Below, in pieces: positions 24,269 through 31,340 of a stretch of 64,000 nucleotides of DNA; position 1 is the stretch's first letter; each line of letters starts with the position of its first letter. The position numbers and the translations under genes were made by a program. Below the pieces are notes generated by a model. The model had not been told where the DNA came from. It did not search any database and saw only the letters and a list, made by a program, of their open reading frames with translations. The stretch is taken from the NCBI GenBank assembly GCA_963716775.1, contig CAVQUI010000004.1, positions 288,360-352,359 on the forward strand. Reading direction: 5' to 3'. Origin of the DNA: an uncultured delta proteobacterium. GTDB lineage: Bacteria; Myxococcota_A; Polyangia; Polyangiales; Houyiibacteriaceae.

Positions 24269-25339
24269 TCAGCCTTCGACTTGGTCCTCGCTCGGGACGG
24301 ATTTAGGCTCTTCAGGTGGCGGTTGGTAGCGCAGCAAGTCCTCGACCCGTTCGAGCAGTTCGCCTTCGAAGTGCAGCGAAAAGCGCGGCTCGAGCAGCTT
24401 CATTCGAACACGCCAGACGACCGGATCGGCAGGATCTCGCAGAACGACCGGCGTGGCTCCTGCGAGCACCCAGGGCGAGCTCAGAATTGCGTCCGTGAGC
24501 GCCATGCGCACCTTGCCGGCGTTCTCGTAGCCTTCGAGCCGTACCACCACTTCATGCTCAGCGTCGGAGCCGGCGTCGTACACCATCGGCGCACCAACCA
24601 TCGCGCGGTTCGGAACGGTGAGGCGGTGCCCCTGTCCGTCGCGCAGCCAGGTCGCGCGGAGCGTCCTGCCTTCGACCGTCCCCTGAAATCCATCGCCAGA
24701 GACCCACATCCCCTTCTTCACGCGCCGTTCGACGGCGAGAATTGCACCGGCAACCAGGTCGGCGAACAGATCGCGGACCGACCATCCGATGACCAGGGCG
24801 AGAACGGCCAGTGTCCAGAGCATCCAACTCTGGTCGTTTGGGACCAATTCGAAAACAACCGCTAGAAGCAGACAAAACGCTGCGATGCGAAGACCGAACA
24901 CGAGTCCGCCGAGCACGCGCCGCAGCGGAATGTTCGTGGTGATCCAATTGCGGGTGCGCTCGGCCAGGAACAGCAGCAGACCCACGGCAAGCAGCCAGAG
25001 GAATAGGACGAGCAGCGGATCGCGTTCCTGCGTCCTGGGCGACTCCTCGCCGGCGTCGCCGGGGGGCTGCGTCCGAGCGATCGAGCTCGGCGGATTTTGA
25101 GAGGGGCTTTGCGCAGAGGTCTGCTCTTGCTCGAGGGCCGGGCGCTCATCCGTTCGTTTCTTGGCTGGAGCCGGCTTGGCTGCTGTCCTGCTTGTCTTCG
25201 ATTCCGCCCGGGTTTCCTCTCGAGCATCCTGCTGGTTCTGCGATTCGTCGGTCCGGTCGAAAAGCTGCGCCCCAGCGGGAGCCGCGATAGAGGCGATCAG
25301 CAGAAACGACAAGCAAGAGCGTTGGAGCTTCGAAATCAC
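24269..25339 (-). CDS. MscS-family mechanosensitive channel with a long low-complexity periplasmic N-terminus
   Basis: Signal peptide, TM helices and an MscS beta-domain signature (GDGFQGTVEGRTLRATWLRDGQGHRLTVPN). GTG at 25337-25339 overlaps the upstream TGA (GTGA). Confidence 0.8.
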   Translation of the reverse strand: MISKLQRSCLSFLLIASIAAPAGAQLFDRTDESQNQQDAREETRAESKTSRTAAKPAPAKKRTDERPALEQEQTSAQSPSQNPPSSIARTQPPGDAGEESPRTQERDPLLVLFLWLLAVGLLLFLAERTRNWITTNIPLRRVLGGLVFGLRIAAFCLLLAVVFELVPNDQSWMLWTLAVLALVIGWSVRDLFADLVAGAILAVERRVKKGMWVSGDGFQGTVEGRTLRATWLRDGQGHRLTVPNRAMVGAPMVYDAGSDAEHEVVVRLEGYENAGKVRMALTDAILSSPWVLAGATPVVLRDPADPVVWRVRMKLLEPRFSLHFEGELLERVEDLLRYQPPPEEPKSVPSEDQVEG

Positions 25340-29850: not shown

Positions 29851-31340
29851 CAACGCCTCCAGAACCCTGGCACGATGAGCGCGAAGAGCGTGAAGAACTC
29901 GAGTCGCCCGAGCAGCATGGCCATCGAGAAGAACAACTTGCTACCCGCCGAGTATCCCGCGAAGTTGTCCGGCCCCACGTGGAAGGGTGCGGGCCCCATG
30001 TTGGACAGGCAAGTCAGCATCGCCCCGAAGGCCGTGGGAATGGGAATGCCCTCGACCAAGGTGAGGAAGAGCAGGCCGAATCCGATACATCCCATGTAGA
30101 TCAGAAAAAAGGACGCGACGTCGGAGAGGACCTGGTCGCTGATCGCGGCTCTGCCCATGCGCACGAGTTGCACGGTGGCGGGGCGAAAGCTCTTTTGGAT
30201 CTGCGCGACTGCCTGCTTGCCCATCAGGACCGCACGCTCGATCTTGATGCCGCCGGCGGTCGATCCGGAGCATCCTCCGACGAACATCACAAGGATCACG
30301 ATTGTGAGGGCTGTCGAGCTGTATGCGCTGTAGTCGTCGGTGCCGTATCCGGTCGACGAGATCGTGGTCGCGACCATGAAGAAGGAGTATCGGAAGGAGG
30401 TGAGCAACTCGTCGTGCACGCTGAGGTTGAGAATCGTCAACACAACCACCGAGCCCGCGACGATCGCGATGTACCATCGGAACTCGATGTTGCGCACGAG
30501 CGACCTCCAATTGCCTGTCCGCAATAGGCCGTAGTAGAGCCCGTAGTTCACGCTACCGATGAGCATGAAACAGGCGATCACGTATTCGACGGCGGCGCTG
30601 TCGAAGCCGCCCACCGAGCTATCGAGCGTCGAGAAACCGCCCGTCGACATGGTGGTGAACGCGTGACAGACGGCGTCGAACAGATCGAGGCCGAGGATCT
30701 TCAGTAAGGCGATCTCGATGATCGTGAGGGCGCCATAGAGCTTCCACAGAGCGAATGAGGTCTCGGCAATTCGGGGTCGCAAACCCTCCGCGGTCGTTCC
30801 GGGTACCTCTCCGCGAAACAGATGCTTGCCGCCCGCACCGAGGTTCGGAAACACCGCGACGAACAGGACGACGATGCCCATGCCGCCCAGCCATTGAATC
30901 AAGGAACGCCAAAGCAAGAGCGGCCGCGACAAGCGCCCTTCGATATCTCCGATGACCGTAGCGCCGGTCGTCGTCAGGCCGCTGACCGACTCGAAGAATG
31001 AATCGGCGGCCGACATGCCGGCCCCGAGCATGAACGGAACCGCGCCACAGGCACCCGCGGCGATCCAAATCAAGCTGACTGCAAGGAGCGCTTCACGCCT
31101 CGAGATCCTCTCCGTGATGAAGCGATTACCGTAGAGAAACGCGCTCAAGCCGAGGACCGAGACGATGATCGCCGAAAGCGCCATCTCCGCGGCGCCCCCC
31201 TGCGGCCGACTGGGATCGGGCGCGAACTGGTCCCAGAGCATGCCGACCCCTGCGCAAAGCGCAATCATCACGCCGATCGCGAGCACGACGACTCCGACGG
31301 GTCGGATCACGCCACGAAAGTCTCTCGATTGCGTGCTCAC
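29850..31340 (-). CDS. trkH: Trk-type potassium uptake membrane subunit
   Basis: GTG at 31338-31340 overlaps the trkA TGA (GTGA). About 496 aa with repeated MPM-type segments (SGLTTTGATV, TMSTGGFS, ISSTGYGT, CLSNMGP). The longer ORF to 31532 is a read-through frame. Confidence 0.9.
   Translation of the reverse strand: MSTQSRDFRGVIRPVGVVVLAIGVMIALCAGVGMLWDQFAPDPSRPQGGAAEMALSAIIVSVLGLSAFLYGNRFITERISRREALLAVSLIWIAAGACGAVPFMLGAGMSAADSFFESVSGLTTTGATVIGDIEGRLSRPLLLWRSLIQWLGGMGIVVLFVAVFPNLGAGGKHLFRGEVPGTTAEGLRPRIAETSFALWKLYGALTIIEIALLKILGLDLFDAVCHAFTTMSTGGFSTLDSSVGGFDSAAVEYVIACFMLIGSVNYGLYYGLLRTGNWRSLVRNIEFRWYIAIVAGSVVVLTILNLSVHDELLTSFRYSFFMVATTISSTGYGTDDYSAYSSTALTIVILVMFVGGCSGSTAGGIKIERAVLMGKQAVAQIQKSFRPATVQLVRMGRAAISDQVLSDVASFFLIYMGCIGFGLLFLTLVEGIPIPTAFGAMLTCLSNMGPAPFHVGPDNFAGYSAGSKLFFSMAMLLGRLEFFTLFALIVPGFWRR

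Follow-up and report, generated by a model that had tools for sequence, protein, structure and literature searches.

Secondary transporters that carry a fused cytoplasmic regulatory module are known. The Kef exchangers (KefC/KefB, with KTN/RCK domains) and the Staphylococcus aureus exchanger CpaA (CPA2, with an RCK_C domain) join a cation/proton antiporter (CPA) domain to a C-terminal cytoplasmic regulatory domain that binds a nucleotide or ligand and act in K+ homeostasis, and SOS1 carries a cytosolic regulatory tail of about 700 residues, which is composed of helical and CNBD-like regions. On the channel side, MscK, which is linked to K+, and the bCNG channels add a sensory or regulatory element to an MscS-type channel. 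P-loop NTPases that modulate a non-ATPase ion carrier are also known, with ArsA acting on ArsB and TrkE/SapD acting on TrkH. Here, we describe a gene on a 64,000-nucleotide stretch of DNA from an uncultured delta proteobacterium of the Polyangiales (GenBank assembly GCA_963716775.1, contig CAVQUI010000004.1, positions 288,360 to 352,359), hereafter called the window. The gene encodes one polypeptide in four parts, namely, a CPA-type antiporter domain, a helical arm of about 650 residues, a STAND/ORC-like AAA+ module, and a C-terminal winged helix. The last three parts are referred to as the tail. Compared with the known transporters with a fused regulatory module, what is new is the type of module. 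The tail is an autonomous evolutionary module, and the partner that accompanies it constantly in genomes is not the exchanger but an MscS-like channel gene.

By analogy, the system most resembles, in its presumed function, the regulated CPA exchangers and the MscS channels with accessory sensor domains, but it differs from each of the described systems. Unlike Kef and CpaA, the fusion protein lacks a KTN/RCK domain, its regulatory part consists of about 1,050 residues of arm and AAA+/winged-helix module, and the RCK domains of the window operon are found only in a separate TrkA gene. Relatives of the fusion protein are labeled “Kef-type ... KefB” by the Joint Genome Institute. Among solved structures, the CPA1 exchangers SOS1/NHX7 (from plants) and NHE1, which have large cytosolic regulatory tails, match the membrane domain best in sequence (E value of 8e-6), but their tails are unrelated to the arm and the AAA+/winged-helix module, and their ion-site motifs differ (TSP in the fusion protein versus TDP, and KD versus ND). 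The STAND/AAA_16 proteins (MalT, AfsR-type regulators, Apaf-1/CED-4, and NLRs) share the order of P-loop base, helical lid, and winged helix, the N-terminal “GRexE,” GxGK, and “hhhhDxLHW” Walker B motifs, and, in the case of CED-4, a position among the fold matches, but the fusion protein has no C-terminal repeat sensor, has a 650-residue N-terminal arm, is tethered to a transporter, and has degenerate Walker motifs. ORC/Cdc6, RuvB, and the clamp loaders are the top Foldseek matches over the three subdomains, whereas the gene context shows nothing DNA related and the ORC/Cdc6 model TIGR02928 scores far below its cutoff. Unlike in MscK and the bCNG channels, the presumed regulatory element is not a channel domain but an AAA+ protein, either separate or fused to a transporter, whose gene lies upstream. 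ArsA (SIMIBI) and TrkE/SapD (ABC) belong to ATPase classes other than that of the AAA+/STAND-like tail, and no homology was found.

The tail also occurs without the antiporter domain. A profile search of 1.84 billion representatives gave 2,028 matches at an E value of ≤1e-3, with 262 of them at ≤1e-30; among the 150 matches listed of these 2,028, many proteins of about 1,000 residues begin at the arm start, and they stand beside fusions of about 1,500 residues. The non-myxococcal tail genes fall into three classes, i.e., the CPA fusion, the tail alone, as a soluble protein of about 1,000 residues, and a fusion to a K-Cl-cotransporter-like permease of the SLC12 type. Tails without a CPA domain are found, for example, in the gene order TrkA-TrkH-tail-MscS (locus L080, with a tail protein of 1,009 residues) and as a simple tail-MscS pair (locus L079, 1,022 residues), and the standalone proteins P0263 (1,103 residues) and P0269 (982 residues) both have a PF00924 gene directly downstream. 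A CPA-tail fusion from an AT-rich organism (P0268) lies in a neighborhood that contains the operon genes of the window in another order (CPA paralogue, CPA-tail, MscS, TrkH, and TrkA). In P0270 and P0271 (1,727 residues), a K-Cl-cotransporter-like permease is fused to the tail, and the P0271 gene is then followed by MscS. The permease part of P0271 matches AA_permease, SLC12, and TIGR00930 (E value of 1.7e-112), and its tail matches with an hhalign probability of 96.5% and an E value of 8e-10 over 479 columns.

Word-indexed homologue searches with P0263 and alignment A5 retrieved only five proteins, while a metagenome scan seeded solely with the tail signature [LI]P[FP][IY]Y[RQ][RQ]LF yielded 50 further loci. 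Of the non-myxococcal loci, 51 leave enough room downstream of the tail gene, and in 46 of these the very next gene is MscS-like. Since the search pattern was taken from the tail only, this sample is unbiased with regard to MscS, and because the retrieval was blind to the neighbors and MscS genes are few per genome, the adjacency of tail and MscS is far beyond chance. In several of the examined loci, the stop codon of the tail gene and the start codon of the MscS gene overlap. The SLC12 fusions, with about 1,730 residues (metagenome loci L083, L101 to L125, L129, and L134 to L136), keep a canonical Walker A motif, most of them also keep an acidic Walker B with an “ELWWE” motif, and they are usually followed by a short MscS-like gene of about 250 residues. 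Por_Secre_tail domains in some of the neighboring genes suggest that this class belongs to the Bacteroidota, and “Bacteroidetes bacterium” occurs among the record titles of the non-myxococcal relatives. In one protein (P0250, 1,641 residues), the tail appears to continue in frame into a minimal MscS-like domain, the only such fusion seen. A candidate for a fusion of CPA domain, tail, and MscS (P0143, 2,083 residues) was rejected as a frameshifted gene call with out-of-frame low-complexity sequence from about residue 1340. As a side observation, the MscS-like protein downstream of the tail in L079 (positions 10940 to 13327 of that locus) bears a C-terminal YceI-like domain, and a YceI gene is found near the tail-MscS pair in L082.

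Within the Myxococcota, the fusion is the rule. A search with the tail alone (residues 470 to 1505) found 158 proteins, nearly all of about 1,500 residues and with the Na_H_Exchanger domain (Pfam ID PF00999), and with identities ranging from 97% down to 45%. They come from independent metagenome assemblies and metagenome-assembled genomes annotated as Polyangiales or Myxococcota. A scan of GTDB with one genome per species gave 107 matching stretches, of which 79 distinct loci were kept; these are titled Myxococcota, Myxococcales, Polyangiales, Sandaracinaceae, or “delta proteobacterium,” with a few generic titles, and the closest relative is a metagenome-assembled genome at 97% identity. The source annotations of the relatives read “cation:proton antiporter,” “KefB,” or “hypothetical” only. 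The suspicion that the reading frame might be an assembly fusion of separate genes is thereby removed, as over 100 independently made assemblies and the loci of 79 GTDB species show the uninterrupted architecture of about 1,500 residues. This is a real conserved gene and not an assembly join, and its recurrence goes far beyond chance.

The myxococcal gene neighborhood is equally stable. For the synteny scoring, the open reading frames of 81 loci were compared to hidden Markov models made from the window and the family sequences, and 47 loci had full flanks. The next gene downstream is MscS-like in 46 of these 47, TrkA-TrkH lies immediately upstream in 43, and a CPA paralogue comes first in 44. 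The same cassette surrounds homologues at 47% and 64% identity, and the identity of the fusion gene falls in parallel with that of its neighbors. Conserved synteny and parallel decay of identity argue for vertical inheritance, not for a mobile island.

On the window, the fusion protein is encoded by a minus-strand open reading frame at positions 25336 to 29853, found as the first-pass annotation had described it, with 1,505 codons counted from a TTG. The residue numbers used here follow this 1,505-codon numbering from TTG 29853. The second codon is an ATG at position 29850. Its A is also the last base of the TGA stop codon of TrkH, the preceding gene (TGATG), and a GGAGG lies a few bases before it. 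Because of this junction, the GGAGG, and the length of the homologues, which is 1,504 residues, the true product most likely starts at this ATG and has 1,504 residues, corresponding to positions 25336 to 29850 on the minus strand. The same annotation had proposed a CPA-type exchanger with more than 10 transmembrane helices, the absence of an RCK/KTN domain behind it, and the strings QLVVVDGLHW and VRLEPLSEEEL together with a particular C-terminal segment. All of these hold: Pfam places Na_H_Exchanger at residues 60 to 451, hydropathy gives about 13 to 15 hydrophobic segments, neither an RCK nor a KTN domain is found by Pfam in the fusion protein, and the strings and the C-terminal segment are present.

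The C-terminal module was modeled with AlphaFold2 (AF2) for residues 1150 to 1505, based on an alignment of 22 diverse members (A1). The model has a mean predicted local distance difference test (pLDDT) score of 84.7 and a predicted template modeling (pTM) score of 0.82 and shows a five-stranded alpha/beta base, a helical lid, and a winged helix, with the strands at the expected AAA+ positions. The module is preceded by PLVYRRLF (residues 1174 to 1181; positions 26311 to 26334, minus strand), which belongs to the signature P-x-[IVY]-Y-[RQ]-[RQ]-L-F common to the three architectural classes. The AAA+ alpha/beta base, delimited by AF2, Foldseek, and Pfam, spans residues ~1194 to 1334 (positions 25852 to 26274, minus strand), the helical lid, which contains the invariant GGLVRDALRLWLASI, spans residues ~1338 to 1406 (25636 to 25842, minus strand), and the C-terminal winged-helix domain with the invariant HLRG spans residues ~1407 to 1505 (25339 to 25635, minus strand). 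A Foldseek search of the PDB with this model gave 526 matches at an E value of ≤0.001, and the best 50 of the 526 are all of the AAA+/STAND type. The best matches are RuvB, ORC/Cdc6 proteins (Drosophila, yeast, and archaeal), clamp-loader subunits, PaBY2304 (PDB ID 2qen), ClpC, and CED-4, with E values of about 1e-8 to 1e-6, a probability of 1.00, and template modeling scores of about 0.35 to 0.46, and they span the base, the lid, and the winged helix. The sequence identity of the ORC/Cdc6, RuvB, and clamp-loader matches is 11 to 19%.

The sequence profiles are weaker than the fold. AAA_16 (Pfam ID PF13191) matches the whole protein at residues 1192 to 1236 with an E value of 0.008 and 17.1 bits versus a gathering score of 32.6, and the isolated module (20.6 bits) and P0263 (29 bits) also score below this cutoff. 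All 22 aligned members match AAA_16, always under the gathering score, with a best E value of 3.3e-6; nSTAND1 is matched by seven of them, NB-ARC by two, and NACHT by one. The strings TGRDQEIRRAE...GVDGVGK and LVVVDGLHW resemble the AAA_16 consensus. PDB sequence-profile matches cover just about 60 residues around the Walker A motif of ClpC, ClpB, and Hsp104, and the sole addition from NCBIfam is a very weak match to TIGR02928 (orc1/cdc6) with 12.6 bits versus a cutoff of 181.3. Pfam found no repeat family, and the protein ends with the winged helix. The first-pass annotation had read this region as an ORC/STAND-like P-loop module with a winged helix, which is correct at the level of the predicted fold, while the curated thresholds for AAA_16 and ORC/Cdc6 are not reached. 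It had raised two doubts, namely, whether the P-loop region adopts an NTPase fold at all and whether a characterized regulatory family already claims the tail. The AF2 model and the Foldseek matches over base, lid, and winged helix answer the former in the affirmative; as for the latter, no such family emerged, with only the subthreshold AAA_16 match in Pfam and no family assignment by NCBIfam or PADLOC. Models for the tail are absent from Pfam, NCBIfam, and PADLOC, and a full-text literature search found no description of the fusion architecture.

The nucleotide site was compared in an alignment of 72 C-terminal modules. The Walker A-like sequence GVDGVGKA (G1221 to A1228; positions 26170 to 26193, minus strand) contains the GVDGVGK that had been placed at positions 26173 to 26193, and this placement is exact, with Ala where Ser or Thr is expected. 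GxxxxGK[ST] is thus not matched by the window protein, and the myxococcal clade follows the pattern GxDGVGK[A/S/G], i.e., the residue after the Lys is A, S, or G and not S/T. The P-loop Lys itself is invariant in the aligned members except for one fragment with Arg. The Walker B-like LVVVDGLHW (residues 1269 to 1277; positions 26023 to 26049, minus strand) is similar to that of AAA_16, and its D1273 varies within the clade, with D in most members and otherwise S, N, E, G, or Q. The sensor-1 Asn is missing from the myxococcal clade, the window included. Outside the Myxococcota, a canonical Walker A, G..x[SG]GK[TS], is found in most classes. The Walker B of the SLC12 class reads IIIDDLELWWE and that of the standalone class VVILEN; it is acidic in most tails of these two classes, while the non-myxococcal CPA class has N or D at this position. 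The sensor-1 Asn is present in most SLC12-fused tails and similar fragments and not in the FIYRRLF standalone class or the non-myxococcal CPA class. A candidate ORC-type sensor-2 Arg in GGLVRDALRLW was not relied on, its Arg being missing from all non-myxococcal classes (GN[VI]GxAL).

Judged by these motifs, the module outside the Myxococcota looks like a competent ATPase, and the eroded myxococcal site appears to be the derived state of an ancestrally competent one. Since the catalytic motifs are eroded while the P-loop Lys is kept, binding of nucleotide without efficient hydrolysis is supported for the myxococcal clade. The earlier proposal that the Lys-Ala Walker A means binding without hydrolysis gains weight from the comparison of canonical relatives with the eroded clade.

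The helical arm (residues 515 to 1160; positions 26374 to 28311, minus strand) was modeled for residues 505 to 1160 from an alignment of 16 members (A3). The model (pLDDT of 86.3 and pTM of 0.74) is a packed all-alpha bundle with helices of 50 to 87 residues, the longest at model residues 297 to 383, and two small beta pairs. Sequence conservation covers the full length of the protein, the arm included. The arm had been described as charged and heptad-like; the coiled coil was not borne out, and the arm is instead predicted to be a conserved packed bundle. A single alpha helix stabilized by salt bridges was ruled out, since 31% of the residues are charged but opposite-charge pairs at i+3/i+4 are not enriched (51 observed versus 63 ± 7 in shuffled sequences). 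Foldseek gave nothing significant for the arm against the PDB (best E value of 0.07) or against the predicted viral structures of BFVD (best E value of 0.03, tape-measure-like noise), and the BDLP stalk (probability of 0.75 and template modeling score of 0.22) and the ClyA-type toxins, which came up in the PDB search, were discarded as relatives because the matches were not significant. The arm profiles (A2 and A6) matched only a designed helical bundle and translin among solved structures (E value of >0.009), no Pfam family was found, and an internal duplication was rejected with an hhalign probability of 3.8% between the N-terminal and C-terminal halves.

The antiporter membrane domain (residues 60 to 451; positions 28501 to 29676, minus strand) is supported by Pfam, by the alignment to SOS1/NHE1, and by hydropathy. 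It matches Na_H_Exchanger with an E value of 1.9e-21 and 76.8 bits versus a gathering cutoff of 26.2, covering profile positions 3 to 369 of 375, and all but one of the hydrophobic segments lie inside residues 17 to 453. Pfam showed no TrkA_N/TrkA_C match in the 1,505-residue protein at an E value of ≤1, and the NCBIfam Kef models did not match the fusion protein. Although a phmmer search of the PDB with the CPA domain by itself gave no match, the family profile aligns to the SOS1/NHX7 and NHE1 structures with E values of 8e-6 to 1e-3. In this profile alignment, ATSPAAT lies opposite ATDP of SOS1, so that T202-S203-P204 (positions 29242 to 29250, minus strand) corresponds to the “TDP” of the unwound SOS1 helix with the ion-site Asp replaced by Ser, and VVLKDV lies opposite the ND motif, so that K231-D232 (positions 29158 to 29163, minus strand) corresponds to the CPA1 “ND” with Lys in place of Asn/Asp/Gln. 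The Asp of transmembrane helix 5, D232, is invariant, the Asp of transmembrane helix 4 is Ser, and 15 of 17 members have the Lys before D232. The family as a whole is thus changed at two canonical ion-site positions, and the substrate or the coupling is possibly unusual. Because of these two changes, the substrate is not readable from the sequence; K+ is suggested solely by the Trk genes of the operon and by the existence of tails fused to K-Cl-cotransporter-like proteins. Between the antiporter domain and the arm lies a poorly conserved linker (residues 461 to 514; positions 28312 to 28473, minus strand), which ends in a conserved W...WG motif opening the arm.

The fusion gene is the fourth of five minus-strand genes, in the order CPA paralogue, TrkA, TrkH, CPA-tail, and MscS, where TrkA, TrkH, and MscS were identified by Pfam and NCBIfam. 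All four junctions overlap by 1 to 4 nucleotides (ATGA, GTGA, TGATG, and GTGA in gene order), which implies translational coupling of the operon. The first gene (positions 32674 to 34014, minus strand) encodes a divergent, polytopic, tail-less CPA-like membrane protein of 446 residues without a Pfam or NCBIfam match. It is a paralogue of the antiporter domain, as indicated by BLASTP (E value of 8e-6 over the region of transmembrane helices 10 to 13) and by the common motifs GF..NF, P..V.FF.AGA, and N[DE]L.[AG]P. The paralogue is kept upstream of the CPA-tail gene in the distant AT-rich relative with 26% identity and an E value of 1e-31, and its conservation suggests a heterodimeric CPA pair. 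TrkA (positions 31337 to 32677, minus strand) has two TrkA_N/TrkA_C pairs, and its ATG overlaps the stop codon of the first gene. The TrkH K+ transporter (positions 29850 to 31340, minus strand) had been listed as a reading frame of 560 residues, longer than the real gene, which starts at GTG 31340. This GTG overlaps the TrkA stop codon and gives a protein of 496 residues (homologues have 497 to 499); at the other end of the gene, the TGA stop codon and the ATG of the fusion gene overlap.

The partner gene (positions 24269 to 25339, minus strand) encodes an MscS-family channel of 356 residues, and its GTG start codon overlaps the stop codon of the fusion gene. The protein consists of a signal peptide, a low-complexity periplasmic stretch, three transmembrane segments, and the PF00924 beta-domain (41.2 bits versus a cutoff of 20.2), and it best resembles the C-terminal channel core of MscK/MscM. 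At the other end, 77 nucleotides upstream of the operon and on the same strand, lies a TetR-family regulator gene (positions 34092 to 34757, minus strand), which is a possible regulator of the operon. Close relatives and locus L002 have kept it, but it was mostly not detected on the same strand in loci below about 55% identity, with divergent-strand matches in L057 and L062. Upstream of the TetR gene follows a 388-residue reading frame without a Pfam match (34786 to 35952, minus strand). A mevalonate-pathway cluster lies downstream of the operon (20217 to 24238). Its minus-strand genes are diphosphomevalonate decarboxylase-like, GHMP kinase, and polyprenyl synthetase genes, and its plus strand carries a gene of the flavin mononucleotide-dependent dehydrogenase family, possibly a type 2 isopentenyl diphosphate isomerase; the same neighbors flank the operon in L002.

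Based on comparative genomics and predicted structures, on which the functional statements made here rest, we propose that the tail is a nucleotide-dependent switch or scaffold linking an MscS-type channel to K+ transporters for turgor and K+ homeostasis, a reading to which we assign a probability of roughly 55%. The tail would be the cytoplasmic component of a K+/turgor-homeostasis unit and would dock on, or signal to, its dedicated MscS-like channel. The fused tail would couple this channel to a K+-handling transporter, by way of K+/H+ exchange in the window and K-Cl cotransport in the Bacteroidota-like class, so that solute release, K+ efflux, and, via the co-transcribed Trk system, K+ uptake could be coordinated. 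As the catalytic residues are eroded in the Myxococcota and the P-loop Lys is retained, the window protein probably serves as a state sensor that binds ATP/ADP, similar to the closed/open switch of the STAND type, without turning it over. Both types of fusion partner act as dimers in characterized relatives, and the CPA class carries a tail-less paralogue, which makes it likely that the membrane unit of the window is a heterodimer of antiporter and paralogue bearing a single tail. Our confidence in any specific gating mechanism is considerably less than that in the overall switch or scaffold function. A bolder version, in which the tail and the downstream MscS-like channel form an unrecognized two-component machine of several bacterial lineages, with the nucleotide switch gating or being gated by the channel and repeatedly capturing K+ transporters as N-terminal fusions, is put forward tentatively, as a less likely but still substantial possibility.

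Several points weigh against the proposed linking role. Gene adjacency is the sole link between the tail and the MscS-like protein, and 5 of the 51 non-myxococcal loci have no adjacent MscS gene, 4 of these being confirmed by Pfam. The TSP in place of TDP and the KD in place of ND make the substrate of the antiporter uncertain, the arm yields no functional clue from Foldseek searches of the PDB and BFVD, and the taxonomy of the non-myxococcal loci is derived from a few record titles and neighboring genes.

The tail could also be a purely in-cis regulator of the antiporter, replacing the KTN/RCK domain of Kef, with the MscS and Trk neighbors as merely co-regulated osmotic genes. Its covalent connection to the exchanger in about 100 Myxococcota species fits this, and large cytosolic CPA tails have a precedent in SOS1, the best PDB sequence match. 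However, tails without a CPA domain still adjoin MscS (L079, L080, L082, L084, and about 17 metagenomic loci), the tail is also fused to the unrelated SLC12 permease, and the invariant neighbor is MscS and not CPA, which makes this explanation unlikely. A different role would be assembly, quality control, or unfolding, with the AAA+ module inserting, remodeling, or extracting the MscS-like heptamer or the transporter. This idea is compatible with the sequence-level PDB matches, which fall on the P-loop part near the N terminus of ClpC, ClpB, and Hsp104, and with the hydrolysis-competent motifs of most non-myxococcal members (standalone and SLC12-fused), but we judge it quite improbable, given that the Clp matches span just about 60 residues around Walker A, that the whole-domain folds are those of RuvB, initiators, clamp loaders, and STAND proteins with a winged helix and not of classical unfoldases, and that the myxococcal protein is strongly constrained despite its lost catalytic residues.

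An anti-phage or abortive-infection system, where a STAND-like NTPase would respond to infection by opening the MscS-like channel and the fused transporter and so collapse the ion gradients, has to be weighed as well, since STAND/AAA_16-like NTPases are common defense sensors, membrane-disrupting effectors are their common partners, and weak matches to nSTAND1, nSTAND3, NB-ARC, and NACHT were obtained. However, when the tail, its MscS partner, the CPA paralogue, and P0263 were compared with PADLOC-DB 2.0, none of them gave a match at an E value of ≤0.01, and no TPR, WD40, or LRR sensor array is present. The housekeeping-type TrkA-TrkH operon with its synteny in 43 of 47 Myxococcota loci and its apparently vertical inheritance is not what such a system would lead one to expect, nor is the erosion of the ATPase motifs across a clade that strongly conserves the protein, and we consider a defense function highly improbable. 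Least probable of all is a membrane-tethered DNA-binding regulator, whose winged helix would sit on DNA while the arm reaches from the membrane to the nucleoid and ion status is passed on to transcription or replication. ORC/Cdc6 and RuvB, which use their winged helix on DNA, are among the best fold matches, and 1 of the 22 members gave weak MarR-type matches. Yet basic residues are scarce in TAQAQLSRLAHLGLL, the presumed recognition helix, the winged helix of STAND proteins is an intramolecular switch element, the soluble standalone forms and the SLC12 fusions retain the MscS neighbor, and a separate TetR regulator precedes the operon.

The way in which bacteria coordinate K+ uptake, K+ efflux, and the emergency release of solutes is understood piecewise, in terms of RCK domains, cyclic di-AMP, and membrane tension. 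The family described here, unannotated and with at least 262 cluster representatives at an E value of ≤1e-30, is not confined to one lineage and ties the three together, both physically, by gene fusion, and genetically, by tight operons. In practical terms, its genes are now annotated just as “cation:proton antiporter” or “hypothetical.” The intact versions and the degenerate myxococcal ones provide a natural experiment on whether hydrolysis or mere nucleotide binding is what matters. If the tail regulates the MscS-type channel or the fused carriers, it would represent a new class of regulator, STAND-like AAA+ proteins, in membrane transport, and the mechanosensitive-channel field would gain a candidate protein partner for the control of gating. 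Were the tail and the channel indeed to form a two-component machine, an AAA+/STAND-type NTPase would for the first time be seen to exert direct control over ion channels and secondary transporters in turgor homeostasis.

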